A stretch of 64,000 bases of DNA, taken from Blasia pusilla (Eukaryota). The stretch is taken from contig CM114271.1 of NCBI GenBank assembly GCA_050084515.1, forward strand, positions 6,696,001 to 6,760,000. Reading direction: 5' to 3'. The notes below the pieces were generated by a model that was given only the letters and a program-made list of their open reading frames with translations, made no database searches and was not told the origin of the DNA. The position numbers and the translations under genes are program-made. Of the stretch, positions 2,925 through 31,579 are shown piece after piece (the stretch's first letter is position 1; each line of letters begins with the position of its first letter).

Positions 2925-5900
2925 AATTTGAATTTGTTGCAGAAAAGCCGATCATTCTCTTGAAAATTCAGGATCATGTGAAGTGCCTGAAGGATCTTAC
3001 TTGTCTCAACTACCATATAAGGATCAATGAGCGATAGATATCTTCTCGTGTTACTTATCGCATTCCTTCTTCCCACGTTCTCAAGTGAAAAATTTACAAA
3101 CTGTAAGTCTAATTAGTGTATTGGAAGATACCTTTTCATAGGTTTTTAGCAAAGCCAACTCCCACTTGGATTTATTTCCCATGGGAGAAGTAGTTTCAAA
3201 CACAAAAAGTAATCTTAATTGACCATATCAAGTTAATACATTCTTTCCTTGTCCCTCTGCTTGGATTGCAACATCACAAAAGTAAGGCAAGCCAAATAAA
3301 TCAGAACTTGCTTGGACGTACATATGTCAATTTCCACACCTATCTCATGGACCAAAAGGAATTTCCAAGGCATTTGTGATCTTCAGTACCTAGCAAAAAA
3401 TACTTGTTCGTAGTCCTTCGAATGGAAAAATTAGACAGGTGCTAACTATTTTTTGGGTAATGTAATCTAACATTTCATAAGTACATTTAGTTGAGATTTG
3501 AGCCATGCATGCTATGAGAGCAAATTGCAAGTTAAATTTTAACTCTGGTTGAGCATTCAACAATCTTTGGGCGGCAATAGAAAGTGGGAGACGATGATCC
3601 TAAAAATGAGTCAACCTTAAGTCAAGGTTGTGACTCGATAGCATTTTAACTCCACTTTCCACAACCTATAAAAGAAACTTTCAAGTATGAATACCATAAA
3701 TTATTCAATTTTCTATAAACTAAACTTAAGATAAAGATGAACTAAAAAATCAATGTCTCCAAATTAGTTAGTTCCTTTTAAATTCAATCTCACCTTGTTC
3801 CATAGCAATGTTGCGATCAAGAGATTTGTACACATCTTGACCATACATATCATCTTGTAAAGCACCAAGTCTTTCATGATAAACCATGATCTGATGGTTG
3901 AAATCTCTACGGTTACAACAATGACAAGTTGTCTTCATTAAATTGAGATGAAGTTATTCATATATATTAGAACTAAACTTCCATGGTAATCCCGATTGTG
4001 GAATACTCTCACATAAATATATCATAGCATGTATCTTAACTAGATTGAACTCTGAGTTTTGCCATTCCCTCAAGCAACTTTTCATTAAAGCCACACCCCT
4101 GCATCAAAGATATAAAAAATGCACAAAGTTCCCAAAGCATATGTATTCAAAGTTCATTGAGTATCAGAATATGCATTTTAATCAGAAAAGTTGCATTAAA
4201 AAAATGGAAATTTATGAGACATAAATTACACTTACCGTTCCATCAATAAATCCATCTGCTGTAAGGATTCCTCAATGTGGCACCAAGTTCAAGGAGCAGT
4301 ATGATACCACTCCAAATATCTTGTGATTGTTTGAATGACAAAATCTGGAGAAATTCCAATCAAGAAAAATACAATGATATGCATTACTGAGACATGCTCC
4401 CGTGCAGCAAAAGAAGCTCCACTCGTATAATACTTGTACTTTCCTCTACAAATCGGGAGACAAAACTCAGGATATTGATGGTTTTTTCCGGATGAATGCC
4501 TTCTTGAGATCAAGCATATAGATGGTGTACCATCCTCGAGAGTAGCCATTCTCCTTACAATATCTACTAAAGTACAAAAATGACCTAGGTTGTTCATATA
4601 GAGTACATAAGGATGTAGGGCCTTATAAGGATCAATAATCTCGATATTCCCAATATTAAAACCCCACAAGGAATTGTGTATTCAAACCAAAATCAACCAA
4701 CATTAAATTAATTAAAAATATTATGTGACATATTCTTAGTATGAGAAGTTGAATTTATGAATCATTCAAGAATTGAGAAGGAAAATGGATTAGAAGAATG
4801 CCTTAACCATATGGATCTAGTATCTTTTTGAATATCTTCGGCCATGCCATATGTAAACTTTCCCATTCGATCATAGTGATTTCTCATATTCGTTTCAGTC
4901 CGAGATTCAAAAATGGTCACTTACCTCATTTAAACTTTCCTTTGGCCAAAGACACACGCTAAATGGATATGTACAATGATTGGTATCATATGTGCATGTC
5001 ACCTACATAAATTAAAAATTATCATCTTTTATTATTCAAAAATTAGATTCTATCAGTTAAAGAAAATTCATCTCATATATCAATTTCAAATTTCACCAAA
5101 CATAAATGAAAAACAAACCAACCTTGCATCCTTTGAGATGGTCACAAATGTTGGCAAATCACATGGGGAATACCCATTGTGGAGTACCAAAAGGGTTGTT
5201 TAAAGGTATACCTCTATAAACAAGTGAAAAAATATTAGTAAACTTGAATTGGTCATTTTGAATTGAAACAGAAAATCTATCATAACAACATATATGAACA
5301 AATATTTATTGGCATACAACTTTCAAATTGTTTTTAAAACATAGAAAATATACTTAGATTTTTTAAAAATTTAGGAAAGACATATAATTTTTTCTTTACA
5401 AATTTTTTTTTTTTTAAAAGTCTCAAAGTGGTACTGAAACTTTATGTTTTTAAGGATAGATAATAAATAAGTTACAATGATGCATGGAGACACTTTAGTC
5501 TAGTCAAACTTCCACTTCCCGATTCTGAAATATCTACAAATAAACATAACAAAGCATGCTCTCTTTAACATCTTTTACTCAAGGCTTTTTGCATCAATAC
5601 AACAAATCCATGAGGAATTAAGAGGCTTCATAAAAGTCTTTACCTGGATTACCACCATCTATTGTTGGTATTTTTCCCAAAAGTGCATTACCATCCATAA
5701 GGGATCTCATTGAACATTCGATGTTGGCTATAGTCATCATAATAGAATAACCATGAGTTTTCCGATCGTTTGATTGTGTTGTATGATGTGAGTAGAGAAT
5801 AATAGAAGCTATGACTTCACATGGGCATTATGTATCCATAAATTTCTGCATGCATGCAAAAGAATAAAAAGTAAATTCATTTTGTATGTTTTTACCACAA

Positions 5901-6300
5901 GATATTGAAAAAATAAGTTAGAGGGAGAATGAGACTTTGATGATCACCTATATCTCCCTCCACCATATCCATGTTGAAGGCCTCATGTAAAATCTTTCAT
6001 ACGCTCTTTGTGGAAAAAGTTTAAATCCATCTATGTTCTTTGGGGATGAAAAAAGTCGTGCCAAAACTTGCAATGGATCTTTGAAATGAAAGGTTACACG
6101 AGGGGCAATTCCTATCTTCTCACTCAGTAGATGTTTTTGCCAACCTCATCTCTCAAAGCTCATCAATGATTTCTCAAAAGTCCTCAAAGCATTGAGATTC
6201 TCGATCTTCATATCGCTCAATGAAAAATCTGGATGAAATAGGATCCGCAAGAGAGCTCGTACGTCACCATTAGACATGCCCATCTTGTTTCAAAAAAATC
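2925..6300 (-). pseudogene. Plavaka-like (CACTA-related) transposase, intron-containing and decayed
   Basis: Minus-strand pieces in the expected order: VTFHFKDPLQVLARL (~6060-6100), IASIILYSHHTTQSNDRKTHGYSIMMTIANIECSMRSLMDGNALLGKIP (~5670-5815), GIPLNNPFGTPQWVFPM*FANICDHLKGCK (~5120-5212), YVLYMNNLGHF (~4580-4610), ALHMILNF..FCNKF (~2930-2990). They are separated by AT-rich intron-like gaps and contain many stops. Confidence 0.7.
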
Positions 6301-6405
6301 GGATAAAATATGCAAGTTGAATGGTTCTGTCCAATGGCCTCCCATCTCCTAGAGATGTCTGAATATCATCATAATTAGAAAGAGATAGATGAGTTAAATG
6401 AGGAT

Positions 6406-6408
<3 letters not shown>

Positions 6409-6479
<71 letters not shown>
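6409..6479. repeat. (GA)n microsatellite, ~71 bp
   Basis: Pure GA run seen directly. Confidence 0.98.
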
Positions 6480-6481
<2 letters not shown>

Positions 6482-6699
6482 GGACCAAATTATAGGCTTG
6501 TAATTGTATCGGAGGAGAAGTTTGTGGCCTCAAGATGGGGGTGAGACATTGTTTCTTCTGAAGTAGCCTACATGCAATGCTCGTAGCTCGATGTCCTTTT
6601 TTACCTTCTAGCATACTCAAGTAGGAACATGACATAATACCTTTGGCGGATTTACAAATTTATCTCAAGTATCTATCTCGGCGTTTACCATGACATCAA

Positions 6700-9146
6700 A
6701 TTGGTCACTTAACCATTAAGGAGTTGTCTTGACGTTGGGATCTTCCACTTTCCCCCTTATACAGCAAAAACTAACAAGACTTTCTCATTCTAGAGTCTTG
6801 ATGGTGTCTCCTAGGTTTGAAGCTACCGTTGAATTATTCAAGTGCTAGTGAATAAAATGTGCATCTTATTGATTGTTTATCATGATTGATTTTCTCATAT
6901 ATAAGATATTTATTCATGAGAGATATCCTTGAAGTGTGGAGTAGTAGCTTACAATTCTTCAAGCCTCATTATGGATATGTAACTTTGAACATATAAAATC
7001 TTGATTGAAGATACTTAAATAAGAATGAAGTTTATCAAGTTTGGAGGAGAAAATAAGGCATGAGGTAGAATGCCTCTTGAGGTTTCCTTGAGGTCTGTCT
7101 TCTTCGTCATCTTCATATATGTGTCCTCTTTCAAGATGATTAAGAGGGCGATGATATGGCCTATTTTTGAGCCTACGTAGGCAAAAATTAATGGCCATAT
7201 GACCATATCTATCACTCTCAAAACATTGGTGTGTATCTCTTCGGACTTTGAATTCTGTCCCTCCTCTAGGAACCCCGGCCCTACCGGTTCAAGGAGCAAT
7301 CCCTTGTATGTTGGGGTTCCGATCTCTTTCCATTGGCACCTTTCCATTATACATTTGTGGCAAAGCTTTATGCTCGAAGCTTATCCATCTCCATGAGTGT
7401 GAGTCCGTACTGGTTTTTCACGTAAGCAACCACCTATCCTCCTCCTTCGTATAAATTTTCCATATGTTGGGCATATGCGATTGCTTCATTGATATCTTTT
7501 GGGTTGTCTCGAATCACCTCTTGACGCACCTTTCTCTTCAAAAATCTCTTCAACAGATCGAGAACTTCTACCCCACTCATGTCGCAGATTTATATGTGTA
7601 AGTCAGAAAACTCTTAAATATAGTGCTCCACAATACCTTTTTGCTCCAATTGCCATAGTTTCATTCTAGCAGTGAAGATTGGATCCACAACTTGGAAAAT
7701 TTGCAGCAACCCTTGTTTCATTCCGTACCATGTGATTTGTTGACTTTTTTCAATCAAGGATCTTTCCTACCCTTAATACCATATCAATGCTTGATCGGTT
7801 AACCAAGATCTTACGAACATCCTTGCAATATGATCATCAATGTTAAAAAGGGATAAATGGATTTCCATACGAGTGATCCAACCCTCTAATACCCCCATGG
7901 CTTGACTTCCTTTGTACGGGTCTATATTGCATGTCTTTGTCATTTTTAATATCAATCACGTTTGGTTATTCATCTCAATCACTCTTTCTACTGCTTAGGC
8001 CTCCAATGATTGTGCCCTGAAGGTTCTCTCTCTCTCTCTCTCATATATTTCTCACCGAAGAAACTTCTTGCGCTAATTCGTGGACTTGATTTTCACTTTG
8101 ATCAAATGCAACTCTCAACTCTCTCAATCACGAATCATATCCCTCAAAGTTTCTTCCATGGTTACTCCGACTTTCCTCTGACCCTTTACTACGACTTTAA
8201 TATAAGATGAAGATATACACATACCAATTTCGCACAATAGGGACTACAAAAGGCATTGTTGACGCAATGACTTCATCATAATACTCTTGGCCAAACTTCC
8301 TCACCATAAGCTCTCTATATGTTACCTTAGGTTGACAAACCACATGGACTATACATTGAGTGTTAAAAAATACTTATGGGAGCCTATTCAAATCCATTCC
8401 CCATGTCTTACCTAAAATAATATATAAATAGTGCAATCCCACACATGATCATATATAACAATAGGGAGGATCGTCGAGAAGCGAGACTCCATCATTTGCA
8501 TCATAAAAACTTCACCAAAGTGATATACGAGGTATCTCAAGAACTAGTGTCTATCTACATATAAGAGTTTGATGGTGAACGGATTAAGAAACGAAAAATT
8601 AGGAGACACTCTTGCTCTCCCTCGATCCATTACGTGCAAAACAAGCCTTCCTCCTTAATCTACTTCCAGCTCAATAGCCACTGCCAACCTCTAACAATCT
8701 ATCTAACTCTCGACAACGTATCATTACTTGGTCATCCTTGTCATAAGGATAATCCACTCTCGTAGGAAGAGCAACCTTGTTGTGATACCATTGTAACTCT
8801 CCAGCTTATGGAACCACTCTAGAGTTGCTCAAAGGTAGAATGCCTCTCGAGGCCTCTCCTCTTCCTTTAAATTCTTAGAGATAGGTACAATAAAGATAAA
8901 TTGGTTCTACCTATCCTTATGCCACGTATTCTTTTCTCATAATATGAGAGGATCTTCTTTGGACTCTAATGTCCCTATCTTAGCTTTCCCAACCTCATCC
9001 TTATCTTACTTTTCACCAACCTATGGCCCCACTCTCATCTTTATCTCATGTATCTTGTCTTTTCTCTTTTTTGGTAGATTCTTTCCCACTTATGCATTGC
9101 ATGTCATAGACTCTAACTTAACTATGACTAAAAAAGGATGGTTACA
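6700..9146 (-). mobile_element. Old Ty3/Gypsy relic: 5' LTR, tRNA-Met PBS and gag/protease remnants
   Basis: LTR-like 8792-9146 is bounded by TGTAAC...GTTACA. On the minus strand it is followed by TGGTATCA (8783-8790). Gag-like ORF 7773-7955 (LEGWITRMEIHL..WLTDQALIWY) and a degenerate protease-like HALF..NFI in ORF 7015-7347. Confidence 0.65.
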
Positions 9147-10592
9147 AGAAGACACTTTGGTAATCCGCTTCTCAATAAGTCATGAAAATCCCATCTAACT
9201 TAAGTTTAAAGTGGGTGGAGTATGTAGAAGAACAAAATTATGGTTAGAATTTGCATTGAAGAAACATGCTTCTTAAGAAGTCATCGAAATCCCTCTCGAT
9301 TGAAGGTTAAAGTGAATGTATTACGTAAAGTACGTGAATAACTGAAGGAGAAGAAAAAGCTATAAATATCATGTTATATATGTGGGGGAGGATGTTGACA
9401 AGGCACCTGAAGTTGTTACTTGGGAATTTACCTCACAGCCATTATGCCAAGATGAATTATGATTGGTATCAATTTCTAGCTCTCACTTCGTACTGAAGCA
9501 AACAAATGCAAAAATTAAATCACTACATAGAAAAGTTATAAGTGCAACTACTTTCAAGATTGAATGTACATCTTCTTCTACGATTGGTTTTACATCAATT
9601 TCCCTTTCGGGATGCTGAAATACCACAACCCAAACTACGAATAGATTGAGCTAAAGAGGAGCTAAAGAGAACAAGAGTTATCAAATGCATGAAAACCAAA
9701 ATCTAGTTGAGTGATCAATTTGATGTTCATGTACATGAAATGAACATAAGTCGCATGTGAGGAAATGAAGTAGCAGAGAGAATAGTTTGAAATTTAAACG
9801 TGAATAGGAGCTACATTAATCCCTTCGATTCAACCTGAGTATGTTATGATCTACCACATTGATTGTAGGCTTGCCTTGTCGTTGCTATTTTAGAACCCAA
9901 TCCATGCAAAGAGGATAGGAATGAGTCTTATTTGATCAAGAGGTCGAATTATCAAGAATTATTGAAAGAAGTGATGATCGTCTTCAAAATTTGTATAATA
10001 CTCGTTTATCTTGGATTGCAGAAATTCACTTACGCAAGGAAATTATCACCATTTTGCTGTAGAACCTCCTCCACAACAACTCTCGCTTCCTCTCGATCTT
10101 TCAACTTCAACCGCACTTGTTCCCAAATCGCGTATCCCCTCTCTGTAGCTGCACCTTCCACGACCACAACTCTCGGAAACCTAGTGAGCTTGCCGATTCT
10201 CTTCCCCTAGCCTTGAGATCATCTAAATGCCCTTACAAATTAGACTTGGACACAAAAAAAATTGCAAGAGGTTGCATCTGTCGTGCGCATACACATCGCT
10301 ACACAACATACATCGTTGTCACCGAACACACACACAAACACGCACGATCCCATGCTAACTCATGGCATCCAAACAACGAGACAAGAAGAACTAAAATATA
10401 TCCAATCGCCCCCCTAGCTGGTGGTTGTGTCCCTCTAACTCCAGATAGCCATCTATCCCTATCTACCATGACATACATCTCTCGGACGCTAAGAGCAAGA
10501 AGGCCGGGTGCTTATGTGGCCCCATCGTTAGTCGCCTTCATGTCATCCATGTCACAAAAAAATTCGAAATCGAAACCTACCTAGTATCTCCT

Positions 10593-11850
10593 CTATGTAC
10601 ATCTAGGACACATCCATCGTCCCCGAGGAACCCTAGTGAGAGGTGGCGTTAGACATGCCATATGCCAACCTCTCGAACATCCATCACAGACTAGCATCGT
10701 GGCCGCACCACAGGCAGAACCACACAACAAACAACACAAGCCTGCACGAACTATTGCTAATCTCGGATCTACTATACCATCAATGTTAGGAAGCTGATAT
10801 GGCGCAAAATTACGCACATGGTCCTTCCATACCATACCATCGCGTCCCTCCAGCAAGGGAACACTTGATGGCAAAACGTCACGCACTCTCAGGATAGTGC
10901 GCCCTGTAGTCACATCCAACGTCGTCGGTGCCGTCTGCTGATAGTAGACATAATCTCCCTGATTAAACCTCCAGATAGTTGGTTGATAACCACCACCCCG
11001 AATAGTCGCATACCTCAACGTATTCCGATGGTGCGCAATTGCCAAGTTCTCGAACACCATGGGCATCACTCTCTGAAACAACTCAGCCGTCTGAGAACAT
11101 GCTGGCATCCATACATCTGGGTCATCAAGGTCCAGCACCTCACCAGCATCTTGAAAAATGGCCGTAGGTTAATCTGGCTCTCGGCCATAAAGTAGCAAGT
11201 ACGGTGAAAAAGACGCTAAGGATGCTTGCCTGCTAAATCTGTATACCATCACCAACTAGGGCAACTGGAGGTCCCAATCTCCTAGGTGACCTCTCTGCAA
11301 GCCATACTTGCGTAAATCCCTCTTCACCGTCTGCACAACTCTCTTTGCTAATCCATCTGCCTCAGGATGATCTCGCGAAGTCGTGCGATGGTCGATCAAT
11401 GCCTGATCACACAAGGCCTGGAACTCACTGCAAAACCTCGGTACCTTGGTCTGTCAATACCTCAACCGGTGCGCCATAATGACTCAACACTTTTTCAAGG
11501 AAGGCATAAGCTACTCCCTCACTCGCTTTGTCAAGCAATGCAACCATCTCGATCCACTTCGAGAAGTTCTCAACCATCACCAACACATAACGACTGTGAA
11601 GCTCCGTCAAAGGCAAAGGTCCTGCAAAATCCAAACTCCATCTTTACCCTAAGCCCATGATCGATAATGGATGCAACTGTGGAGTTGGAGCATTGAACGA
11701 TGTTCGGACCTGATCACACACCATGCACCTGGCAACAAACTGCTGAACGTCAGTTTGCATGCCTCGTCACCAATACTGAATTTGGAGCAAGCTGTACATC
11801 CGCTTCACCCCAAAGTGACCCAACTCCTCGTGGGCATGCTGCACTAGTCG
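10593..11850 (-). pseudogene. Element A integrase (HHCC + DDE) with C-terminal PHD finger
   Basis: HEELGHFG, DFAGP, VLTDQGTE, GLAKRVVQT; ends [45 protein letters not shown] (C4HC3). Confidence 0.9.
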
Positions 11851-12229
11851 TGCTTGTTGCAAAGGATGCGGCACTACGCATATTCTGCCATCTTCCCAAA
11901 CCCTCAAAACATATGTCCCCTCCCAACGGAACCGTCTGGCCCGCTGTAGGATCCGATCCCACTCTCTAGCAGCCACGGTGCTCGCGATGCTACTAGTACG
12001 AAGGTACTCCAAGATTACTCCATCATCATGAATATCTTGGCCACCTGTGGTCTCCTCACTTGCCTCGGGATCCAAGGACTCTCCACTAAACCTCGCCATC
12101 GAAGTGTCCACACTCTGGCTGTCCATAGCCAACATCCCTAAATAGGCTGATGCTTGCCATCCTGGCACTGACTCCTCATCACTCTGTCCATGCCATCAAG
12201 CTCCAGTCGCATCGCGCTGACTCGAGCAT

Positions 12230-13640
12230 GGGTTACGACTCAACCCATCTGCATCCTGGTTGAGCATCCCAGGTCTATGTACCACCTGAAAATCATGCTC
12301 CTGCAACAACAGAGCCCATCTTGCAAGCTTCCTTGTAAGCTTGTCGGATTCCATCAACCACTTCAGTGGTTGATGATCAATGATGATGGTAAAGGGATTG
12401 CCAAATAAGTAATACCTGAAATGCGTGACAACCAAGCACTCACCCTCATATGAGATGTACTTTGCCTCTGCAGCGTTGTTTGAGCGGCTAGCGTAACCCA
12501 CCACAAACTCTCTACCCTCATCATCATGTTGGGTGAGCACCGCTCCAAGCCCCAACATGCTTCAATCTATGTGTAACTGGAAAGGACGCCCCATGATTGG
12601 TCTCCTCAAGATGGGCGCGATGTCAACGTGTCCTTGACCAACTAAAATGCTCGCTCTTGCTCATTCCCCCAGTGTCACTCGTGATCCACCTTGGTCAACA
12701 AGGTCAGCGGCTTTGCAATCGAACTGAATCCCTTGGCGTACCGCAGATAGAAGTTCGCCAATCCTATGAATGCGCAAACACGACTCATATCTGTAGGGCG
12801 TGGAATGCGTGAGATAGCCTCTACCTTTGTTTGCTAAACACCTAGGCCCCTTGGGTATATTGTATGACCCAAGTACTCAATGTGGTTGTAGAAGAACTTG
12901 CACTTGCCTGGATGTAGCTTCAGCCCATGTAATTGCAATCGTCGAAACACCTCCTCTAGATGTCGCTCATGCTCCTCAATCATGGTGCTAAAGACTACGA
13001 TGTCATCAATATAATACCTAGCAAAATCCAGACCAGCCAAGATCCTATCCATGACCCTCTGAAACTCAGCGGGGGCGTTCTTTTACCCAAATGGTAAGAA
13101 CCGCCACTGGTACAAACAATCCTTGCCGTGAGGATTGATGCCCCAAAATGCCGTCTTCTGCGTGTCTTCCAATCTAATATGCACCTGATGGTATCCGCCT
13201 CACAAATCCAATGAATTGAAGACCTTTGCGTGACCAATCGCATCAAAGATCTCCTAAGGGTGGGCATGGCATACCTATTGGACTTTGTCTGCCGATTGAT
13301 AGGTCGGTAATCCCCACACATCCGCCTATCTGTCTAGTTGCCATGCACATCCTTCTTGGCGGGCATGACAGTGGCAGATGCATACTCCCCATGCGACATC
13401 TCCACTAGTCCTGCTCCAACTAAGTCCTGGCTCCTACTCTGAATCAGAGCCCTCTCCATATCACTGTACCTGTAGGGTCGTCGGAAGATCGTCGTATCAC
13501 TCGACAACTCAATGCGGATCCCGGTCCCTTTAGCATACCCAAATCCTCCATGCTAAATGCAAAATAGCTCCTATAACTCCTAAGGAACTGGTGTATTCGG
13601 CGCCGCTATCCTTCTGTCAACTTAGGGCCCATATCTGGCT
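12230..13640 (-). pseudogene. Element A reverse transcriptase and RNase H
   Basis: MCGDYRPIN, YIDDIVVF, KLHPGKCKF, IEYLGH, GLGAVLTQ, DHQPLKWL, LARWALLLQE. Confidence 0.93.
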
Positions 13641-14009
13641 CCCAAGTCTCCATCGTGACTACGGTAGGACTTTCCGGCGCGGATATCGGTGGTTGCTATG
13701 GTGCAACCCCGTCTCAAACAACAACACTCGACCACTCTTCTGCAACCAACTGCAAACTCTGATCTCCTCCACATGCAGTGCCTGGAACCACACTCGATGT
13801 TGTGGCTATCATCTCTTGGCGTACTTGCAAAACATCCCAAGAAGTCCAAGGATGTCTCTCTCAATCTCCCTTGGTGTGTTGATCTCCTTGGGTCTCGCCC
13901 CCAGTCACTGCCTCCACTGTCTCGGTAAGCATGGGGCTCACCAACGCAATCGCTATGATCTGTTGCGATCTCATCCGACGCTGCTCAGCCACTCCCAAGC
14001 TGAAGATCC

Positions 14010-14930
14010 ATGTCAAGCAGTTCAGGTCCATCGCCTGACCCAAGACATGACGTCGTTATGCCTCTGATACTGACGGGACAACCGTCAGTCTTGGGGAAAA
14101 TCCCATCCCCCGCTCTCTCTCGTCGGCATTGGGCCCCACCAACCTCTGAACCTGGTCATCCCAAACCAAACCACGATCGGCCTCCTTGTATGCATAGGAA
14201 GCAGGAAAACTCACAAACGTGGGATAGGCTGCCCGCGGCTTGCCTACCCTGTTGACCACTGTCAACGGTGGTCGATCATCGTGCCTCACTGCCTGTGAGC
14301 AACGACCTGCATCCGGAATGGAATCCATTAACAAATGGGAGGGGCGCTCCACTCTCATATACGCCCTCCGTAACACCGTATGGGGCACCAAGTTGGTCCA
14401 CCATAGACGCGGGCGATGGGCTCTAGAACCTACACTCGCCGCATCCAAGAACATTTCTGGGCCGATCCAAGCATGCACCTGATGAGCACTCGTGACCACC
14501 TGTCACCTAGAGTCTCCTAAGATGGGCACATTCTCCAGAATGTAGGCTAGTGAACGAGATTGGTGCTCTTGCAACTGCCGTAAGACCCTCAACATCTCCC
14601 AAAACAACCTAGACCGAGTATCAGCCAACCCGCTGCCTCATCTAGCATTTGATTGGCCCTGACATGGCCAACCAAAAATGACCAAATCAATGGTCCCTAC
14701 CCGCTCTAAGTCCTGCGCACCCAACAACGAAATATGCCTCGGTAGGGAACTCTGGTATCCCTATACCGCGGACGTAGAAAACATAGGCGTAACTGCGCCA
14801 CATGTCGTAGTGAGATGCATCTTGCAACATCATCACTCTCCACATACAAGTAGTGTTATACTCGCACTCGTGCCTGCAAAACAGTAGGTAACCCGGTGCT
14901 AATCCCTCCAAAGAGATCTAACACTCAGAT
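14010..14930 (-). pseudogene. Element A DNMT3-like C5 cytosine methyltransferase domain
   Basis: Motif I VLDLFGGISTG (~14893-14924), motif IV GWPCQG (14656-14673), RSRLFWEMLR, motif VI YILENV, motif VIII AHRPRLWWTNL, motifs IX/X ERERGMGF...RHVLGQAMD. Canonical motif order, with several premature stops. Confidence 0.9.
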
Positions 14931-15299
14931 ACCCTCCTCCGGGATACACCACACAATGGGGGTGGTATCCAAGGGTGTCATCATAGCACTCCCTGCTACC
15001 TCGGGTTCCTCTGACCCGTCATGCTTTGGTGCAAACGCGTCGCTCCACGCGGTTTGCACGTGCTCATCTGCCAATCGTCGAAGCTCCTCAGTTGAGCCCC
15101 ACAACGACACCTCTATTCCATGGAATGATGCAGCTACCATAACACTCCTCTCCAGGGAAATGTCAAGAACGGGAGTATCCTCTACATGGACATGTCTCTC
15201 AATCAAATCACTAGGCCAAGTGATGGCACTGTTAAATGCTGCTAAGGTCGCCATCTCTCCTGGCCGTTGCTCGATCACTGCACATGTGAATCGAATGGG

Positions 15300-15720
15300 T
15301 AATGAGCTAAGGCGCCCATCACCTGACTGCCATCCTCGTCTGTAGGACTCTGACTCTTCCCAATAATCCATAGAAAACCCCATTGGGTATAACACTGCTC
15401 CACCAACCAAGAGGTCGTAGGACTCTGCATCAGTCACTATCGCCTTGGCTCGTACCAAAGACTCATCTCTAGGATGTCCCGGGCGAATCCTCACCACAAC
15501 CTCTTATTCGGTGATATATTGTGTGGTACTCGCTCCACCCAAGGATGTCTGTACCCGGAATGGACAACGCTCCACATCGGCTCTCGTCAAGCCCAATCCT
15601 CTGAATGACGCTTTCCCCAACATCAAGGGTTGCGCTCCAGAATCCAACAAGACGCGCTGCGGCCTAAAAGTTTTACCTCTGGGACTCACCAACTGGAAGA
15701 CCTCTCCTCTGTTATCTAGC
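15300..15720 (-). pseudogene. Element A aspartic protease
   Basis: RVLLDSGAQPLMLG active-site motif and downstream YDLLVG. Confidence 0.85.
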
Positions 15721-16379
15721 AACACAACACCATGAGAAGCCATGGCACGCTCTATCACGGGTCTAGCGGGCATCTCCGCCATCCTAGCAGCCGCGGCCTG
15801 CCATGAATCTAACGTGGATGGCCCAAGCATCCGCTCCAAGGGCAGGTCCATCAACTCCTCTACAATCACCTATGAATGTGATGCAAGAACTCCAACTCCA
15901 CGCTCACATAGCGTAGCGGCCAGCCGAAAAGCCTCGGCGGGCGTACCCCCCAACATCATAACATCGGAAGCAGAAAATAAAGGAGCGCGGTACACAATGG
16001 TGGCCGCCCCCAACAACGTGCTTGACACATGCCCCTCCTGAGCATCAACAACGGGAGTCTTCGCACTCGCTTCTCCCATCGCCCTCCGTGCCTGCACACC
16101 AACAACGTCACCAACTTTCCTGGAACTTTGATTAGGACCCATCGATGGGGTCCTCATCGCCTCGCACAATGTGGAAGACTGAGGAAGCCTAGTTTGTTTC
16201 CTGGCTTCCCCTCGCTGTGGATCCAACTCTGCGGCTGCTCCACACGTTACAACTACCGCGGCCTCCATTTGGGCAACCTCGCACATCCAACCAGGATCCT
16301 CCATATCTCTAGCTGCTCCATATGATGTCGATGCCACGGATCCGGCATCGGGTAATCTCAATGCCATAGCGGCAATCTG

Positions 16380-17748
16380 CTCCTATATCTGATGTATCTG
16401 AGCAGCCATCCTAGCCTCACGCCTGGCATCTCCCTCGATGCATCTAGGTGGTAGGACTCTACCTCCTCCACGGGCAGCTCGACCACCCTGTCGGGCAACT
16501 CCAGCTCCTTGTCCCCCAACGGGACCACTTGGTGCACGATCTCTAGCCCCACCCAGATTGGCTACTCGCTCTGGTGCCCTCTTTGGCCCTTGGTCCAGAC
16601 GTAACTCAGGATGTAAACTGAAACACCTGGCGAGTGTATGACCATACCTCTGATAATAGTCACATTGATAACCTCCTGGTGCAGCACCATCTCCTCCTCC
16701 ATGCTGAGGCACATGTCCATGACCCTGACGAGTGCAATCGCGTTGATGATGGACTCCACCACATGACCAACAAGTAATAGTAGGAAGCTATTGCTGAGCC
16801 GCATATGAAGGCACAAGTCTCTGTGGCATGCCAAGCCTCCCGATATCCTCCTTGAGCTTGTGATGCCACAGTCGACCTATCTCAGAGTCCACGTTGCTCC
16901 ACATGTAGTGCAGACAATTGTGACTGCTCTCGCCTAGAACCCATGGTGGCTACGCTCTCCTCCGCCATGTTGCGCTCAATTTTTTTGGCGGTCCTAAAAA
17001 CATCTCTCAACATAGGGGAGGTGTTTATAAGAAGCACCCTCTCCCACACCCGTGTCCGCAGGGTCCGATCCAGCATCGCGTACCATGACTGGATAGCGTG
17101 AGCCTCTATCACCCCTTGAGTGACGTTGATCAATTGGCGCAAGCGAGTGTAAGCATCACACAAACTCTCACGCGGGCGCCTCTGGAAGTCCTGGATGCTC
17201 CGCAACTTCTCCGTCCGTACCCCCTAGTAGCTTGCCCTCAACTCAGCAAAGAACTCAACCACAGGGTTGAACCTGGGACGAACCCGACTAGACGGTGCAA
17301 CTGCTCTCGTGCGAGTGACCCCTCCTAAAACATCACTATTGGAAGAGGAAGTAGCCTCTCCTGACTCCTCCTCCTCATCTGGGAACGGCTCTGTCCATGA
17401 TACATAATATGGGTCATAGTAGAGCCTCCACACCTTGATCTCAAGTGCATATCTTTGATAGAACTCATGGTAATCGTCCATAGGCGCCCCCTCTAAATGC
17501 TGGAACATACCGTTCCATGCTATAAACAGGTTGAACTCTCTAGAGTTCCTGGTCCGCTGGGAGTCGCACCATCTCCTAAACTCTACTATGAAATTGTGCA
17601 ACTCAATCGTGCCTACTTCACCTGAAAACCTACACGGTCCTTTACCCCGATCGTCCATCTCGTACGCCCAACTTGTAGGACCACTCACAATGTGTGGTGA
17701 TGTGCTCACAAACTCCTCTACATGCTCCCTCTCGTCTGAAGACGACAC
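16380..17748 (-). pseudogene. Element A gag (capsid-like plus two Zn knuckles)
   Basis: RFSGEVG..FQHLEG..FQRRPRESL.DAYTRLR gag-like motifs; CWSCGG.HHQRDC and CDY.QRYGHTLARC knuckles; Gly/Arg-rich tail. Confidence 0.8.
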
Positions 17749-18607
17749 AGAAGGAGATCGAGGTGGTCTCTCACGTGGAGACCCTCAAAATCTCGCACCA
17801 CTCCGGGTAAACCCTCCAGAGCTACTCTGAGGTCCACTACCTCGCCTCTCAAAATCTTGAAAGGATGCCGTGATGGCCCTCGTGCCCTTCTCACACGATC
17901 ACTCTCAACCTCGCGAGTAATCCCTCAATCACTCATCCCAAACATGCGGCACTCCATCTACACTCTCCCTCCTTGAGATGTGTAACGTGCGGCAACAAGC
18001 GCCGTGGTGGGGCGAATCGACCAGGCTATCATCTCATCGACAACCTACCCTCAACTTCGGACATCCCACGCAGGTGTATGTCCCCTAAACCACATACATA
18101 AATGATGCTCTCAGCATCCACACACCCAATATCCCCAAAATAACTACCCAAATCCCAAAATCCCTCACACGTGCAGGATAAAGGACCAGAATGGGTAAAC
18201 TGAACACATGTCGATGTCACTCCTCAGCAACTGCAAATCTCGACCCCAACTCGGTCATGGAGACAACTCCACCAATCAGCAAGTCATACTCCTCCCGTAC
18301 TGACACTGCTTAAAACTCCTTGATGGATAGTGCAGTTCCAACGGAACGGTGCGGCGTTGCCGACGGCACCGAAGGGCTACAAACGGCACGGCCCTCGATG
18401 GTGGGATGCGGCACTCGGCGGCATACCCTCCTCAATCAACAATAAACCCAGACTCTACTCCATAATGATGGTGCGGCTCCGCGATCGAGAGACGGTGCGG
18501 TACGGCCACGAGCAGCACGGCACGGTACTCGATTGTCGTCGAGCGGCTACCAATCACAACATAGCAGCATGAAATCAAAACTCAAACACCATAACCAGAT
18601 GTTATCA

Positions 18608-18690
18608 GATTTCTAGGGTTAAATTGTTCAAACCCTAAACCGCCGGCGTGGCGGTTGGTTTAGGGTTTGAACAATTTAACCCTAGAAATC
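18608..18690. repeat. Perfect 34-bp inverted repeat (15-nt loop) containing AAACCCTA telo-box-like motifs
   Basis: GATTTCTAGGGTTAAATTGTTCAAACCCTAAACC (18608-18641) is the reverse complement of 18657-18690. Confidence 0.95.
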
Positions 18691-19845
18691 GCCTAGCAAT
18701 GGCAATTTTGCAAGATTGACCATAACGTTGTACTCGCAACTCCAAATTGCGCACCATTTGTTACACAGCCTGCACAGCTTTACAATCTACAACAACGTCA
18801 AAAAATATTTGGAATTGGACATTCCAGTAAAAACTGACGGGGATTGTCATAAAGCCCAATGTCTCTTTCTCCTACACAAAATTTGGCAGCGCTTCCGCGC
18901 TGATTTCTCCCAACCAAAACCTTCTCCCAAGCTCTCTCCATGGTAACCTATTCTCCCAAGTCACCTCCTTGGCTCTTGACCTAATGTAGGAGGTCAAGGG
19001 CCACTTACCAAAAATAGAAAATCGATCATATACTTAAAATGGTACTTACCTAAAATAGTAAGTTCCTCAATATGGCTCCAAATGAGCCGAAACGAACGGG
19101 AAACCTGCTCTCTCAAGTTTCCCGGGGCCTCAGCATGTCATCCTCAACCTGCTGAGCGTGTCCTAGACTACTCACAAAGGGGCTCTACTAGATCTCACCA
19201 ATCTATCCTAAAAGACGTGACACATCAGTTGGAAGTTGACATTGGAAGGTATCATCAATCCCGCCATATTATTTGCTTATCCATTCCCATGAGTTGTACA
19301 ACATTATCAACCTTGCCAAATTAAATTTGAAATATGTATGTTAGGATCGTCCTTACAAGGTTTACTCTCTTACCTAGTGTGTCATACTCTGAAATTTGTG
19401 AGATGATGATGTAGGCTCGTTTCCCTTATTAAAGTCATACTCGGCACTTGTACAACCACATTCTCATCCTCCGCTTTTGCCATAGAAATTGCCTACACAT
19501 TCCAATGTAGATCCAAGATCCTGATTCATATTAGTTCCATTTATTTGACAAATGGCACAAAATCAACACATCTTTCATCTATGAAGAGTCTAAAGACTCT
19601 ACAGATCGAGATGTAGATGGAGTTGAAGTAATACATAATTATATGCTAGTTAGAACTAGTTGGGTAGTTAAAGAACCAAAATTTATGATACAGATTGTAA
19701 AATATCTTCTACATTGCTCTATAATCAAGTTGAATCCACCATAATTATTTCTGAATGATTCTCGTGTCCCTTTTCCATCGCTTTACGATTCCACTTTTTT
19801 CCCATATTCCGAAAGGCAATTGACATAACACTCTGTTCATATGAG

Positions 19846-26900: not shown

Positions 26901-27965
26901 AACTCTCATGGGTCACGAGGACGCACCAATTAATCCTATCTTACAAGCTCTTGGACCTTGTAAAGATATTTCTTAAATAAAAAAAAGAAAGAAAGAAAGA
27001 AAGAAATATAAATATATATAAATATATAAATATAAATATATATTACTAAGTGTAGAATTAATATGTTGATGTCTTGACATAATAAGTTTTTTGTGTGTTA
27101 TGTTTTAATAGCGGATCCATAGGTTGCCTTCGATGAGGTGGGAAGATAGACTCATAAGGCCGAGGACATGTAAGGACTAAGGCCCCTAAGGATGAAGATG
27201 TGTAAATTCTAGGCTTCTCTCATATTCATCCTTGGGTTGAACTAACCTGAGGCCGACGCGGGGCAGTCCGAGCCCGAGCTGCAGGTTGCCGGGAGGACAA
27301 GAGCCAGTGTCGGGATGAGAGCCGAGGAAGCAAGCGGGGATGTGGGACGTGGGCAAGTGGGGAGTGAGGGGGGAGCAGCAGCAAGGGGCGAGGGCAAGCG
27401 GGGACGGGTATCAAGCTCAAGCCAAGGTGGTGTAGGACAAGTTGGGCTAAGGCTTGCTCGAGCGGGGAGCGAGCCGGGATGAGAGTGCAGTGAGGGTGAG
27501 CTGAGAGCAGGACAAGCAGTCAGGCGAGGCAGGATGAGGAGTCAGGAGAGGCAGGACGAACAGTCAGGTTAAGAGAGCTCAAGATTGAGCGCGGAGCGAG
27601 CTAGGATGCGACCCAAGGGAGCGAGCGGGGACGCGAGACGAGGGCGAGCGGGGAGCGAGGGGCAAGGTCAAGCAGGCAAGTGGGAAAGAGGATCGAGCTC
27701 AAGCAGAGGCGCTGTAGAATGATCTCAAGATCGAGCTCGAGCTCGAGCTGAGGCCCGATCGAGGGGGGAGCGAGCCGGAACAAGATCGGTGTGAGCGCGA
27801 GCCAGGAGCAGTCGGGTTGAGGGAGCAAAGATCGAGCGCGGAGTGAGGCGAGATGCAGGGAGCAAGCGGGGGCGCAAGACAAGAGCGAGCACGGATAGGG
27901 TGAGCATTTAGCCGCTCGAGCTTGAGCCGAGGCGCTGCAAGACGAGCTCAAGATCAAGCTCAAGC

Positions 27966-28066
27966 CGATCTTTGAGGGGACGAGAGTGAGCGAGCGGGTT
28001 GAGAGAGACGATCTTCAAGGGAACGAGAGCGAGCGGGTTGAGAGAGTCGATCTTCGAGGGGACGAG
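27966..28066. repeat. ~40-bp direct repeats (2.5 copies) at the end of a GAGCGAG-rich tract
   Basis: CGATCTT(T/C)(G/A)AGGG(G/A)ACGAG..GAGCGAGCGGGTTGAGAGAG repeated. Confidence 0.8.
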
Positions 28067-28083
28067 GGGTGAGGGAGGGGACG

Positions 28084-28310
<227 letters not shown>

Positions 28311-29557
28311 GAAGTGTAGAAAATAGATTGGCCAATGGTGGAGGTGTCATGAATGCAAGTATTTTAATTGTTATATTTATGGAATTCTCCAGCTCATTGA
28401 TCAACAATATTAATCACTCACTTCATTTTTGTTTTGCAACGCGCCACTAGCACAAAGCACTATGATCTCCTACAGAGGAATGTGCCTGCTTGGTGGAAGC
28501 AACGCAAGGCTGATAAGAAGAAGAAGTGTGCCCAAACGGCAAAGGCGGCTGCGCTTGATCGAGAGCGGTAGATGTACTGCAGCATAGGGAAGGTTCCCTG
28601 TTTCTCATCTTCTTGTTTGTTAGTTGAGTTGATTGAGCACTGCTTCCAAGATTTTGGTATAATCTGGTGGGATGCATTTTTTGATACTGCTCCCGACCAT
28701 GATATGCTCAAGAGCATTCAGTTTTGTCTAGTGGATGAGTGAGTGTGCCTGTGGTGTGACAAAGTTTACTCTAAAATTCTTGCTAAGCCACAACGTGATG
28801 GTGACTCGGAATTTAGTAGGGCTTGGTATCATCTTCAAGGGGTTGTAGCAACCCTTTGCGTGTGGATTAGGTCGAGACTATTTTACTCGGCTTTGTTCCT
28901 AGCATTGTCTTCCTCCACTTTGTATGGAGAGGAAGACCTAGAGGCCCTTCGTTCCAAGAGAGAGGCGCAAGTGAAAATGACTATGGACCACATCAAGAGT
29001 CAAGCACACCTTGCGACCTACAAGCACATGCAGACCGAGGAGTATTGGCAACCACTCGCCACAAGAGATTACCATGCATGGAAGAAGAGCAAGAAGGAGG
29101 AGGTCTTGGCGGGGTTCCATAAAAGAATAGTTGAGGCTCGCATGAAGAAGTACCCCGACACTTCAAAGGAGGAGGCCAAAGTGTAGGTAAAATTGATATT
29201 TTGTTGTGTGAATGTTTCCAATTTCCTTTTTTTTAATGTTATTGTTTATCCTATGATGGATGTGACCACTTGTTTCAGTGTTCGGACACTATGTAGCAAC
29301 TGTTTGGACAGGAATGTCACAGTTCTACATATGTTCTATGTCTACTAACATGGTGTAATGCTTGTCATATGTAGGGTGGTATAGATGAGGAGATCATTGA
29401 TACCTCAGATGACGAGGAGGAGACACAAGAAGGAAGTGTATCAAAAGATGTTGTGGATGCGGAGACTAAATGTTCATCAAGTATAGTGAAATGATTGTTC
29501 CAAATCATTCCCTTGCTGTATAGGGTAGGAGAACTAACATCCCTCCTTTGTCGTGTT

Positions 29558-30208
29558 TGTCGTGCGCATACATATTGCTACACAACATACATCGCTCGTC
29601 ACATCTACACCACACAACACCGATCTTCCCCACACACGGGTCGATCCACACATGTAAAAAAATCAACTCATACATATACATGGAGATCACACAACAAAAA
29701 TAAAGAGTAGTAAAAATGGCACACCCGACATAAAACTCCACTCCTCAATCTACATCGGCATATCGAGACTCGTCCACCTTGTGCTATCAAGGAATCCGGA
29801 CGCTAGCACCCTAGTCCTAGCTCACACACATACAAGGGAGGTGCTCCAACGGCCCAACATGAGAAAGATGGCTTAGGAAAGCCATCTTCCTCTCTTATAT
29901 AGGGTTGGGAAGAGCCAAAAGGCTCTTCCCCTAAAAAAAGTTGTCAGAAACAACGTTCCTGACACAATGAACCTATCCTCAAACTCATCCGACACCATGG
30001 GACAAAGTTACACTCAAGATAGTCCGTTGGCTCCTATGCCCTATCCACGATAGATCTCGGCCTATCGACTACTCAGATGTGACAGTTGTCGTGCGCATAC
30101 ATATCGCTACACAACATACATCACTCGTCACATCTACACCACACAACACCGATCTTCCCCACACACGTACAAAAATCAACTCATATATATACATGGAGAT
30201 CACACAAC
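29558..30208 (-). repeat. Element B 3' terminal block B1-AC-A2-B2
   Basis: On the + strand GTGACA-GT-TGTCGTG lies at 30079-30093, with the B segment duplicated on both sides of A2. Confidence 0.93.
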
Positions 30209-30287
30209 CGGGCCCCTAGGTGGTTGTTGGATCCCCCCAACTCCAGATAGAAAATATCACATCTCTCTGACACGACCTACTACCCTA

Positions 30288-31440: not shown

Positions 31441-31579
31441 TCCACCACTATAGTCATCACCTATGGTTGACCTGCCATAGTCAACCAACAAAGATAGGCA
31501 GATGCATGCCTGCCGAGCACCATCTCCTCATCACTCTCTCCGTGCCATCGAGCTCCTGTGTCATCTCTCTGACTCGGAC

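Follow-up and report, generated by a model that had tools for sequence, protein, structure and literature searches.

The locus raises the question of whether a plant retrotransposon carries a DNA cytosine methyltransferase as a regular part of its pol region, and what such an enzyme might do there. The window, the whole 64-kb stretch of DNA that was analysed, contains element A (10279-19222, minus strand), element B (29557-38641, minus strand) and element C (52526-61075, plus strand). With high probability, these are three decayed insertions of one Ty3/Gypsy-type family of the same kind as KnitGypsy-Dnmt3, whose Gag-Pol carries a DNMT3-type C5-methyltransferase (MTase) between protease (PR) and reverse transcriptase (RT) and has an integrase that terminates in a PHD finger, and which is very abundant and still transcribed in a host that is probably a liverwort. 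Elements A and B share approximately 65% nucleotide identity overall. All three copies are dead, and no intact copy was found among them in the window.

The Gypsy-type assignment made in the earlier note is borne out by Pfam and tblastn, which give the order PR, C5-MTase, RT, RNase H, integrase (Integrase_H2C2 and the rve DDE core) and PHD finger in the family. In element A, all of these features lie on the minus strand. The gag region (16383-17784), with a CCHC zinc knuckle (CWSCGG..H..C), was delineated from ORFs and by tblastn with residues 9-254 and 289 onward of the Marchantia protein P0123; its pieces gave no Pfam match. The PR region is an ORF (15504-15869, LLDSGAQ) that aligns to the PR regions of P0123 and P0129, and for the Pfam protease model the one match is a weak one in the relative L055, which falls short of the cut-off (E 2e-4). 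RT (12687-13650, YIDD) was located by tblastn and RVT_1 (E 1.2e-17 on 12834-13082), and RNase H (12196-12618) by RT_RNaseH (E 3.2e-24). The integrase (10740-12195), comprising an H2C2 zinc domain, the DDE core and a C-terminal region, is identified by Integrase_H2C2 (E 1.3e-5 on 11767-12195) and by tblastn with ORF2 of L055; on the equivalent ORF of element B, the rve domain matches with E 4.1e-13. The predicted PHD finger (10599-10733; PF00628, E 1e-10, 41.9 bits, residues 146-190 of ORF 10593-11168) forms the C-terminus of the integrase and is also present in element B and in the relatives L055, L061, P0192, P0203, P0170, P0220, P0186 and P0197. No tyrosine recombinase was found in the elements, which contain rve and Integrase_H2C2 and no other long ORF.

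The MTase domain of element A (approximately 14005-14930, minus strand) lies between the LLDSGAQ ORF and the RVT_1 match. Motifs I, IV, VI, VIII, IX and X occur in canonical order, and every motif listed in the earlier note was found on the minus strand: motif I (VLDLFGGISTG) in the translation of 14706-15005, and GWPCQG, ILENV, AHRPRLWWTNL, ERERGMGF and LGQAM in order in a single frame over 13861-14760. The domain is broken by five in-frame stops within 304 aligned codons and by one frame change near 14766-14784. In element B (33301-34290, minus strand), the same domain has two in-frame stops within 304 aligned codons and one frame change near 33428; ORF 34115-34615, in the same frame, contains motif I (LDLFGGISTG), and motif IV reads GWPYQG, with Tyr replacing Cys. 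In an alignment of 19 sequences, motif IV never varies at W, P, Q and G, and its Cys is lost only in element B and P0019; the E and V of ENV are almost invariant. Element C retains the C-terminal part alone (56427-56837, plus strand; alignment to element A and tblastn), which runs from RLWWTNL in motif VIII onward and contains none of motifs I-VI. Because A 13520-14410 aligns in C immediately following A 15702-16828, an internal deletion has removed the equivalent of A 14411-15701. The same pol position proposed for the domain in A, B and partly C is supported, in C for the C-terminal part.

A search with PF00145, whose curated cut-off is 22 bits, gave 38.9 bits (E 8.9e-10) for the read-through of element A (P0001, with X at stops) and 25.6 bits (E 9.8e-6) for the 291-aa ORF 33143-34018 of element B, with matches in the window copies confined to the motif IV-VI stretch of the model. 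A C5-MTase profile hit, the lack of which the earlier note had named as grounds for abandoning its claim, was therefore obtained for both A and B; the C fragment taken alone gave no match. ORF1 of L055 scores 51.1 bits, and other intact relatives also exceed the cut-off. The suggestion that the domain is free of introns agrees with tblastn, in which liverwort polyproteins align colinearly across the MTase region, so that there is no sign of introns.

By sequence searches and a predicted structure, the domain appears closest to DNMT3A/B/C, with DRM, bacterial enzymes and DNMT2 ranking lower. The domain profile matches DNMT3A at 1.6e-19, DNMT3C at 5e-18 and DNMT3B at 5.5e-18; DRM follows at 1.7e-12 to 1.8e-9, bacterial enzymes at 4e-6 to 1e-5 and DNMT2 at 1.5e-5, and a single-sequence search ranks the families in the same order. 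Among the profile matches listed at E<=1, none is named DNMT1 or chromomethylase. Profile positions 1-216 and 274-305 are colinear with residues 7-198 and 235-266 of the DNMT3A chain, whereas DRM matches positions 1-125 only, at DRM residues 228-350 in its own C-terminal part. This upholds the view that the domain is DNMT3-like rather than a permuted DRM. The model of the relative P0003 (pLDDT 69.8, pTM 0.73) matches DNMT3A in Foldseek with E 2e-16 and a TM score of 0.73 by target length, and the matches listed, down to rank 49, are all DNMT3A/B/C. Since the tree was built from retroelement MTase domains only, with neither host DNMT3 nor DRM sequences, placement in a DNMT3 clade rests on the ranking of E-values and folds rather than on phylogeny. 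Cellular DNMT3A/B/C are the best match in both sequence and fold, with motifs I to X colinear and the AHR.R..W.NL block shared. The element domain, only about 20% identical to them, differs in being embedded in a polyprotein and in the greater length of the insert separating motifs VIII and IX (poorly modelled, pLDDT 55-65). Pfam detected no PWWP or ADD domain beside the MTase, the only reader being the PHD finger after the integrase. According to a 2025 MBE paper, protist and algal DNMT3s have no companion domains either, so the missing PWWP/ADD does not define the catalytic clade.

The domain might in principle be foreign to the element: a fragment of host DNMT3, an assembly chimera, or another insertion that happened to nest in a single ancestral copy. 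A foreign origin would accommodate the stops and frame changes that fill the window copies and prevent a continuous frame from being demonstrated in those copies alone. All three window elements have the domain at the same position, as do Marchantia P0129, K. nitens P0150 and P0179. In L061, one 847-aa ORF spans MTase, RT and RNase H, and in L055, 1369 and 1047 codons lie in one frame with a single stop between them; the proposed in-frame membership in pol holds in L061 and P0179. In the comparison of A with B, dN/dS is 0.17 for the MTase (297 codons), 0.14 for PR plus linker, 0.10 for RT-RNase H and 0.20 for gag, ratios that are rough because the A-B dS is saturated (pS 0.65-0.73). Purifying selection has acted on the MTase domain during the divergence of these two lineages. 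The A-C value for the MTase, 0.91 over 132 codons, is as expected from decay after insertion. A foreign origin is hardly credible given the equal position in A and B, which are about 65% identical, and in elements from Marchantia, K. nitens and metagenomes, some of which have one MTase-RT ORF; given a dN/dS of 0.17 that resembles those of the neighbouring pol domains; and given the hundreds-fold whole-genome sequencing (WGS) coverage of the MTase region.

That coverage also bears on the claim of an amplified lineage. The WGS depth is approximately 0.36 on six flank bins, a baseline of about six reads, compared with 445-1290 over the internal region, which suggests approximately 1000 copy equivalents and agrees with amplification. 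Over the MTase, the depth is 489-641, about half that of RT and integrase, which could reflect either greater divergence of the domain or its absence from some copies. The transcript check proposed at the outset also gave a positive result: reads from three RNA-seq runs span the entire element at depths of 7-140, rising toward the element 3' end, with an orientation bias above 10:1, the sense assignment of which assumes a dUTP-type library. The numbers of RNA reads that are 90-95% like copy A are 3918/4288, 3477/3873 and 4060/4423, and this limited identity indicates that most reads come from other copies.

Of 897 candidate proteins, 139 reach E<=1e-3, and 452 cluster representatives reach E<=1e-30. 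The best named relatives, from Calypogeia, Marchantia, Sphagnum and Riccia, are 59-65% identical; K. nitens KFL_009030040 is 42% identical to copy A over the domain (E 3.4e-48), and a chlorophyte relative has a different domain order. Both window MTases cluster with bryophyte sequences from Marchantia, Calypogeia and Sphagnum (SH-aLRT 99), which supports a land-plant host, and the K. nitens sequence falls in another clade (SH-aLRT 100). The land-plant origin supposed earlier is further favoured by the sole host-type gene in the window, which best matches liverwort proteins at 52-58% (one gene, four matches).

Another finding concerns the terminal repeats, which are split in the order A1-int-B1-A2-B2 in elements B and C and in the relatives L061, L078 and L079. 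In element B (minus strand), the 5' repeat A1 (38164-38641) is 93-96% identical to A2, and the 3' end (29557-30208) consists of B1 (30086-30208), A2 (29697-30084) and B2 (29557-29695). In element C (plus strand), A1 (52526-53038) is 94.4% identical to 60502-61015 over 514 nt, and the 3' end (60369-61075) consists of B1 (60369-60501), A2 (60502-61015) and a partial B2 (61015-61075). Element A (minus strand) starts with TGTCAC in the first 303 nt of repeat A (18920-19222), which are 92% identical to both A repeats of C, the rest of the repeat being rearranged; it ends with repeat B (10279-10410, ...CGACA), without a second A and B. This A-int-B form can also come from B1/B2 recombination. The termini read TGTCA...CGACA, with TG opening repeat A and CA closing repeat B. 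Target duplications of 4 bp are seen as GATG (copy A, possible), CCAA (L079) and GGTC (L061), with three of four bases in L078; none is recognisable at copy B, and the end of C is truncated. A G-run precedes B1, and the A2|B2 joint is base-exact. Just past the end of repeat A lie bases that could pair with a stretch within the repeat: 13/13 positions are complementary in C and 15/15 in L061 and, by manual comparison, 13/15 in B and 15/16 in L078. The complementarity is weak in L079, and measured against shuffled sequences the duplexes reach only modest z-scores (-2.3, -2.4, -1.7, -1.5 and +0.24).

The split-repeat layout, the TG...CA ends and the 4-bp duplications suggest integration from a circular intermediate. 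Tentatively, and at somewhat less than even confidence, minus-strand synthesis would prime itself where repeat A ends, and plus-strand synthesis would begin from the G-run ahead of repeat B; from these proposed start sites, the reverse-transcribed LTR would be B+A. An end-joined cDNA, resembling a 2-LTR circle, could then be opened by the integrase at CA-NN-TG between B and A, giving A-int-B-A-B. It is very unlikely that the split repeats are instead secondary rearrangements of ordinary LTR elements, as products of tandem or solo-LTR recombination. LTR elements do recombine often, and the form of copy A is derivable by B1/B2 recombination; however, the same order with base-exact junctions recurs in two window lineages and at three loci of a lineage whose MTase is about 40% identical, and no element with two identical plain terminal LTRs (TG...CA) was seen among those examined. 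In addition, WGS depth in the end bins is roughly double that of the internal region, and the joints are covered by 1002 reads from A-end to B-start and at least 576 reads from B-end to A-start. Repeats described as DIRS-like in the Klebsormidium element (PMC5890265, Fig. 4c legend) argue in the same direction.

As for function, it is conceivable, at somewhat less than even odds, that the MTase, made as part of Pol, accompanies the complex that carries out reverse transcription or integration and methylates the new DNA of the element itself or the DNA at the insertion site, while the PHD finger would anchor the integration complex at histone H3 in a particular state, comparable to the chromodomains of chromoviruses. 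Purifying selection shows a function and not which one, and the domain might not act as a DNA methyltransferase in vivo at all, serving instead to recruit or block host enzymes, in the manner of a DNMT3L-like adaptor, or to methylate the element RNA. DNMT3L-type adaptors have lost catalytic motifs, whereas FxGxG, PCQ, ENV, an RxR-type motif VIII and motif X are conserved here across deeply diverged lineages. The fold and best matches are those of the DNA-acting DNMT3A/B/C, with the tRNA enzyme DNMT2 14 orders of magnitude weaker. In PMC5890265, methylation was not detected when the KnitGypsy-Dnmt3 domain was expressed in yeast, which its authors deemed inconclusive, and RNA methylation is raised for a LINE-borne DNMT. 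On balance, a role other than DNA methylation is unlikely, and the proposal that the enzyme travels with Pol and methylates DNA is retained as the working explanation. A still broader picture, which must be regarded as doubtful, is that of an ancient green-plant retrotransposon lineage with a chromatin toolkit (DNMT3 writer and PHD reader), which would combine DDE integration with end-joined circular cDNA opened inside the LTR instead of linear cDNA, and which persists at about 1000 copies, still transcribed, in a probable liverwort. If this were true, a transposon-encoded de novo methyltransferase could shape the methylation landscape of its host by marking its own new insertions.

The kind of element is already known, as Gypsy-DNMT3 was published in 2018 for a green alga; the earlier note cited this report (de Mendoza et al. 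2018), and PMC5890265 bears out what the note says of it. According to that paper, KnitGypsy-Dnmt3 of K. nitens likewise has an intronless DNMT3-type domain in a Gypsy-type Pol ORF with the order PR, DNMT, RT, RNase H and integrase, is likewise under purifying selection (Ka/Ks < 0.2, versus a dN/dS of 0.17 here), and has repeats "like a DIRS element", as in the window when compared by description. Unlike it, the present family resides in a land plant, probably a liverwort, not in a charophyte alga, and reaches approximately 1000 copy equivalents, as opposed to few copies in K. nitens. No integrase PHD finger, TG...CA termini with 4-bp duplications or self-priming-like site was found in the available part of PMC5890265, the term PHD occurring 0 times in its main text. 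SymbioDIRS-Dnmt3 of Symbiodinium, described in the same source, also carries a DNMT3-type domain in a retrotransposon Pol, and its domain performed de novo CG methylation in yeast; it has a tyrosine recombinase and a DIRS backbone, in contrast to the DDE integrase (rve) and Gypsy-type RT-RNase H seen here, and its acquisition and that of KnitGypsy-Dnmt3 were independent in the view of the authors (PMC5890265). Chromoviruses, Gypsy elements with an integrase chromodomain, similarly fuse a histone-reader domain to the integrase C-terminus, and chromodomains are summarised, in the 2026 preprint 10.64898/2026.05.21.726589, as targeting insertion. The reader here is instead a PHD finger (PF00628), as predicted from sequence.

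With respect to the repeats, PAT/Ngaro-type elements have split direct repeats in the same A1-int-B1-A2-B2 order; unlike them, the present elements contain no tyrosine recombinase but a DDE integrase, together with 4-bp target duplications. In Tf1-type self-priming, a segment inside the 5' repeat is complementary to the bases just after the repeat, and the same relation is seen here. Set against these systems, what is new is the land-plant membership, the high copy number, the conserved integrase PHD finger and the split-repeat layout.

Self-comparison of the window resolves three decayed Gypsy-type copies, namely copy A (10279-19222, minus strand), copy B (29557-38641, minus strand) and copy C (52526-61075, plus strand). 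Copy A shares 89% identity with copy C across 7470 aligned bases; with copy B the figure is 65% across 7952 bases of a global alignment, rising to 72-81% in conserved blocks. The G+C content of the elements is 50-56%, compared with 32-40% in the background. According to Pfam searches and to tblastn alignments of liverwort polyproteins, the coding region runs from gag, which includes a CCHC knuckle, through protease (LLDSGAQ), a ~190-codon linker, methyltransferase (MTase), RT (YIDD), RNase H and integrase (H2C2 and rve) to a PHD finger; the gag and protease pieces of copy A gave no Pfam match. The earlier note had read C5-methyltransferase motifs in canonical order in copy A, and these are borne out: motif I is VLDLFGGISTG in the translation of 14706-15005, and motifs IV-X follow in order in one frame of 13861-14760 (GWPCQG, ILENV, AHRPRLWWTNL, ERERGMGF and LGQAM). 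It had also proposed a profile search with PF00145, and at the cut-off of 22 bits both copy A (38.9 bits) and the copy B ORF at 33143-34018 (25.6 bits) match. Copy A was scored as a read-through with X at stops, because its single ORF pieces remained below threshold (E 0.0053, 16.7 bits). The positions that it gave for the domain are correct, and the location is the same in the three copies; copy C, which lacks the equivalent of copy A 14411-15701, retains it only from motif VIII onward (56427-56837).

All three copies are degenerate. Among the 304 aligned MTase codons, copy A has five stops and copy B two; the frame changes near 14766-14784 in copy A and near 33428 in copy B, and in copy B a Tyr replaces the catalytic Cys. 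Across the whole coding region each copy has many in-frame stops and several frame changes, and no functional copy exists among the three.

The class of the enzyme was assessed against solved structures. With copy A alone, DNMT3A ranks first (1.4e-7), together with DNMT3B and DNMT3C, and the weaker matches are M.HaeIII and M.HhaI (0.01-0.04) and DRM (0.14-0.37). With a family profile built from 19 members, the values are 1.6e-19 for DNMT3A, 5e-18 for DNMT3C and 5.5e-18 for DNMT3B, followed by tobacco DRM (1.7e-12), DRM2 (~1.7e-9), bacterial enzymes (4e-6 to 1e-5) and DNMT2 (1.5e-5); no entry named DNMT1 or chromomethylase appeared at E<=1. The profile is colinear with DNMT3A from motif I to motif X, whereas against DRM only its first 125 positions match, at the C-terminal part of DRM, as expected for a rearranged enzyme. 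In a Foldseek search with the AlphaFold model of the relative P0003 (pLDDT 69.8, pTM 0.73), DNMT3A/B/C were alone among the matches listed, to rank 49, the best with E 2e-16 and a TM-score of 0.73 by target length. These sequence-match and fold rankings point to a DNMT3 affinity, and the earlier reading of the domain as DNMT3-like and not DRM-like is thus upheld.

The MTase occupies the identical position in the three window copies, in Marchantia polymorpha P0123 and P0129, in Calypogeia P0122 and in the Klebsormidium nitens protein KFL_009030040 (P0150). In metagenomes, 248 relatives were confirmed, 80 loci were taken and the open frames of 40 were examined. Most of the 40 have decayed to the same degree as the window copies, and ORFs of >700 aa across the domain occur in L055, L061 and L053 only. 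The domain is in frame with pol: in L061 one 847-aa ORF spans MTase, RT and RNase H, and a database polyprotein of 2188 residues (P0179) contains CCHC, MTase, RT, RNase H and integrase. In L055, gag-PR-MTase (1369 codons) and RT-RH-INT-PHD (1047 codons) lie in the same frame with one stop between them. This stop (5083-5085) is the only one in an otherwise open frame of 2416 codons and could be a single lesion or a stop that is read through; the equivalent place in L061 carries no stop. The protein P0043, which a public source annotates as a DNA cytosine methyltransferase from a 'Candidatus Obscuribacterales' MAG, is 90.5% identical to the MTase end of L055 976-5082, which is the gag-PR-MTase ORF of a eukaryote-type retroelement; judged from this match, the contig was probably binned wrongly into the MAG.

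Codons of copies A and B, compared by way of guide proteins, gave a dN/dS of 0.17 in the MTase (297 codons), 0.14 in protease and linker, 0.10 in RT-RNase H and 0.20 in gag, ratios that are rough because the synonymous sites are saturated. Between copies A and C, the values are 0.91 for the MTase (132 codons) and 0.81 for gag. Because dN/dS is 0.17 in the first comparison and 0.91 in the second, the MTase was under purifying selection while the lineages diverged and decayed neutrally after insertion. In this large and old family, the DNMT3-type domain, with its conserved catalytic motifs, belongs to pol and has been maintained by selection.

Among candidates of similar length, 139 of 897 matched the domain, as did 38 longer proteins, and an exhaustive profile search returned 452 cluster representatives at E<=1e-30. 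The best named relatives, at 59-65% identity, are from Calypogeia fissa, Marchantia polymorpha (many loci), M. paleacea, Riccia sorocarpa and several Sphagnum species; the K. nitens relative has 42% identity. In a quick maximum-likelihood tree of 53 domains, all from retroelements, the two window sequences share a clade of 25 (SH-aLRT 99) with every named bryophyte sequence, and K. nitens falls in a separate clade of 9 (SH-aLRT 100). The sequences of copies A and B do not group together, that of copy B being a long branch. The metagenome loci L061, L078 and L079 were considered as members of the K. nitens clade, an assignment that was rejected: by blastp the L061 MTase is 37-45% identical to every clade tested, and L061 is thus another distant lineage. 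A second architecture, RT, RNase H, DNMT, integrase and PHD, is found in P0192, P0203, P0170, P0186, P0197 and P0220, with P0157 also listed; P0220 is a 'pol' of the chlorophyte Scenedesmus sp. Either the DNMT domain moved within pol or it was captured twice. Small shares of the element's words (0.05-0.09) were also seen in air metagenomes (runs X8, X9, X12 and X13).

A single host-type gene was found in the window, at 48620-49123 (plus strand). It is intact, has no introns and is of the SRPBCC / lachrymatory-factor-synthase-like kind (Polyketide_cyc2 E 5e-20). Its best matches are from liverworts (Riccia fluitans 55%, Marchantia paleacea 52%, M. polymorpha 58% over half the length), so that, judged by this one gene, the probable host is a liverwort that is not closely related to Marchantiales. 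Elsewhere in the window, a tandem array of a 112-bp unit (~6-8 copies, 65-89% alike) lies at 39446-40305, and long (GA/CT)n microsatellites, which show as LS/ER runs in ORF lists, lie at 27900-28450 and 6290-6530. ORFs at 40600-41801 (minus strand) with a weak SWIM zinc-finger match (E 0.002, below the cut-off) may be remains of a MULE-type transposase. Rfam gave no match in the window at gathering thresholds.

The family is abundant and transcribed. When reads were counted at >=90% likeness, one WGS run had a mean depth of ~0.36 in six flanking bins and depths of 445-1290 in internal element bins and 489-641 in MTase bins. This gives a rough copy number on the order of a thousand copy equivalents, the flank baseline being about six reads. 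In three RNA-seq runs the whole element is covered at a depth of 7-140 that climbs toward the element 3' end, and reads with the first mate on the plus strand prevail by >10:1, a bias consistent with sense transcription provided that the libraries were of the common stranded design. Reads at least 99% like copy A number just 8-9 in each run, which makes other copies the source of the RNA. A joint from 13108 to 13416 in the RNA was rejected as an intron, having non-canonical ends (GG..CT) and 3-4 reads per run, and was taken as a deletion variant. A different repeat at 8000-9301 has a WGS depth of 60-80, compared with ~0.36 in single-copy flanks, and an RNA depth of 40-130. At fixed sites nearly all of its reads disagree with the window sequence, and in each run 250-355 RNA reads continue differently past 9147. 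It has no Rfam match and no clear ORF, and resembles a truncated and diverged copy of some multi-copy sequence that is highly expressed.

Compared with the family majority, copy A has T/A for C/G at 437 places and the reverse at 99. When copy B serves as the outgroup, C>T and G>A account for 148 of the 280 changes on the copy A branch, with per-site rates of 5.6% at CG, 5.6% at CHG and 1.9% at CHH. This is the pattern expected of methylated plant DNA, and it is silent on who methylated.

The ends of copies B and C are not formed by a pair of plain LTRs. Their direct repeats are split into two segments, repeat A and repeat B, in the order A1, internal region, B1, A2, B2. The 3' block of B1, A2 and B2 lies at 29557-30208 in copy B and at 60369-61075 in copy C, and copy A ends in a repeat B at 10279-10410. 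The same order occurs in L061 (14286-14939), L078 (14297-14946) and L079 (14285-14907), whose MTase is only ~40% identical to that of copy A; in L055 no terminal repeats were found, probably because the contig ends inside the element. Since WGS reads contain ~1000 joints of A-end to B-start and at least 576 of B-end to A-start, and the end bins have ~2x the depth of the interior, the layout is family-wide. The Klebsormidium element is described in the Fig. 4c legend of the 2018 paper by de Mendoza et al. (PMC5890265) as having repeats of DIRS type. The element here encodes a DDE integrase, and no tyrosine recombinase is present. Its integrated unit starts with TGTCA (the start of repeat A) and ends with CGACA (the end of repeat B), and the 4-bp duplications that flank it (GATG in copy A, CCAA in L079, GGTC in L061; 3/4 bases in L078) point to the DDE integrase.

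The joints suggest how this layout may arise. The A2|B2 joint is exactly A-end plus B-start, B1|A2 reads CA-NN-TG, and a G-rich run directly precedes B1. The bases just after the end of repeat A are complementary to a segment inside it. The match is 13/13 in copy C and 15/15 in L061; compared by hand it is 15/16 in L078 and 13/15 in copy B, and in L079 it is weak. This pairing is retained by three different sequences, with duplex z-scores against shuffles of -2.3, -2.4, -1.7, -1.5 and +0.24 in five elements. In the elements inspected, a TATA-like motif lies ~31 nt upstream of the complementary segment. The G-run would be the plus-strand primer site and the stretch complementary to repeat A a self-priming site. 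The reverse-transcribed LTR would be B+A and the linear cDNA B-A-int-B-A, the ends of which would be joined; if the resulting circle then opened at the B|A site within the upstream LTR, the integrated form A-int-B-A-B would follow. Copy A (A-int-B with a target duplication) could be the product of a one-LTR circle or a B1/B2 recombinant. Together, the split repeats, TG...CA ends, 4-bp duplications, G-run and self-complementary end of repeat A suggest, at the level of sequence, that the element integrates from a circular cDNA with joined ends. At 18608-18690 a perfect 34-nt hairpin, whose inverted repeat carries telomere-like TTTAGGG units, was considered as a priming structure and rejected; copies B and C have no counterpart, and it is therefore specific to copy A.

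A PHD finger (PF00628) is joined to the integrase C-terminus, at 10599-10733 in copy A, ~30309-30420 in copy B, ~60040-60180 in copy C, residues 990-1034 of L055 ORF2 and 13079-14233 in L061. It is present in all three element loci examined past the integrase (the window, L055 and L061) and in 6 of the 7 long polyproteins with a Pfam integrase, and is kept in every lineage readable past the integrase, the chlorophyte-type architecture included.

DNA methylation is the main means by which plants silence transposons, so a transposon family with a de novo methyltransferase is counter-intuitive. Tentatively, and with somewhat less than even confidence, we propose that the Pol-borne enzyme methylates the element's own new DNA or the DNA of its insertion site, and that the PHD finger guides the integration complex on chromatin. 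Methylation of the cDNA was proposed by the 2018 authors, in whose account CG methylation was demonstrated only for dinoflagellate DIRS domains (PMC5890265). The main rival explanation is that the domain acts as an adaptor or methylates RNA; the Klebsormidium domain gave no methylation in yeast, a result that the authors call inconclusive (PMC5890265). DNA methylation by the Pol-borne enzyme is the reading that we prefer.

The Gypsy-DNMT3 kind itself has been known since 2018. The streptophyte case published so far, as presented in that paper, is a low-copy family of one alga with enzyme activity that was not demonstrable (PMC5890265), and its main text does not contain 'Marchantia', 'moss', 'liverwort' or 'PHD'. 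Later mentions include the phrase 'streptophytes (Gypsy-DNMT3)' in a 2026 preprint (10.64898/2026.05.21.726589) and one of DNMT3 members 'embedded within retrotransposon structures' (PMC12344493). The literature searches, which did not extend to supplements, where bryophyte members may be listed, found no description of bryophyte or Marchantia members, the PHD finger or the integration ends. The specialist interest of the present family thus lies in its land-plant hosts, a model species among them, its high copy number and transcription, and its permuted repeat and integration layout. Liverworts and mosses, among them the laboratory model Marchantia polymorpha, have elements of this kind, and in the present genome the kind is high-copy and transcribed; tractable land-plant systems are thus available for asking what the enzyme does. 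The permuted layout is a testable lead on how the element integrates, and the PHD finger on how it chooses chromatin: chromoviruses carry a chromodomain at the integrase C-terminus, whereas the element described here carries a PHD finger at that place.
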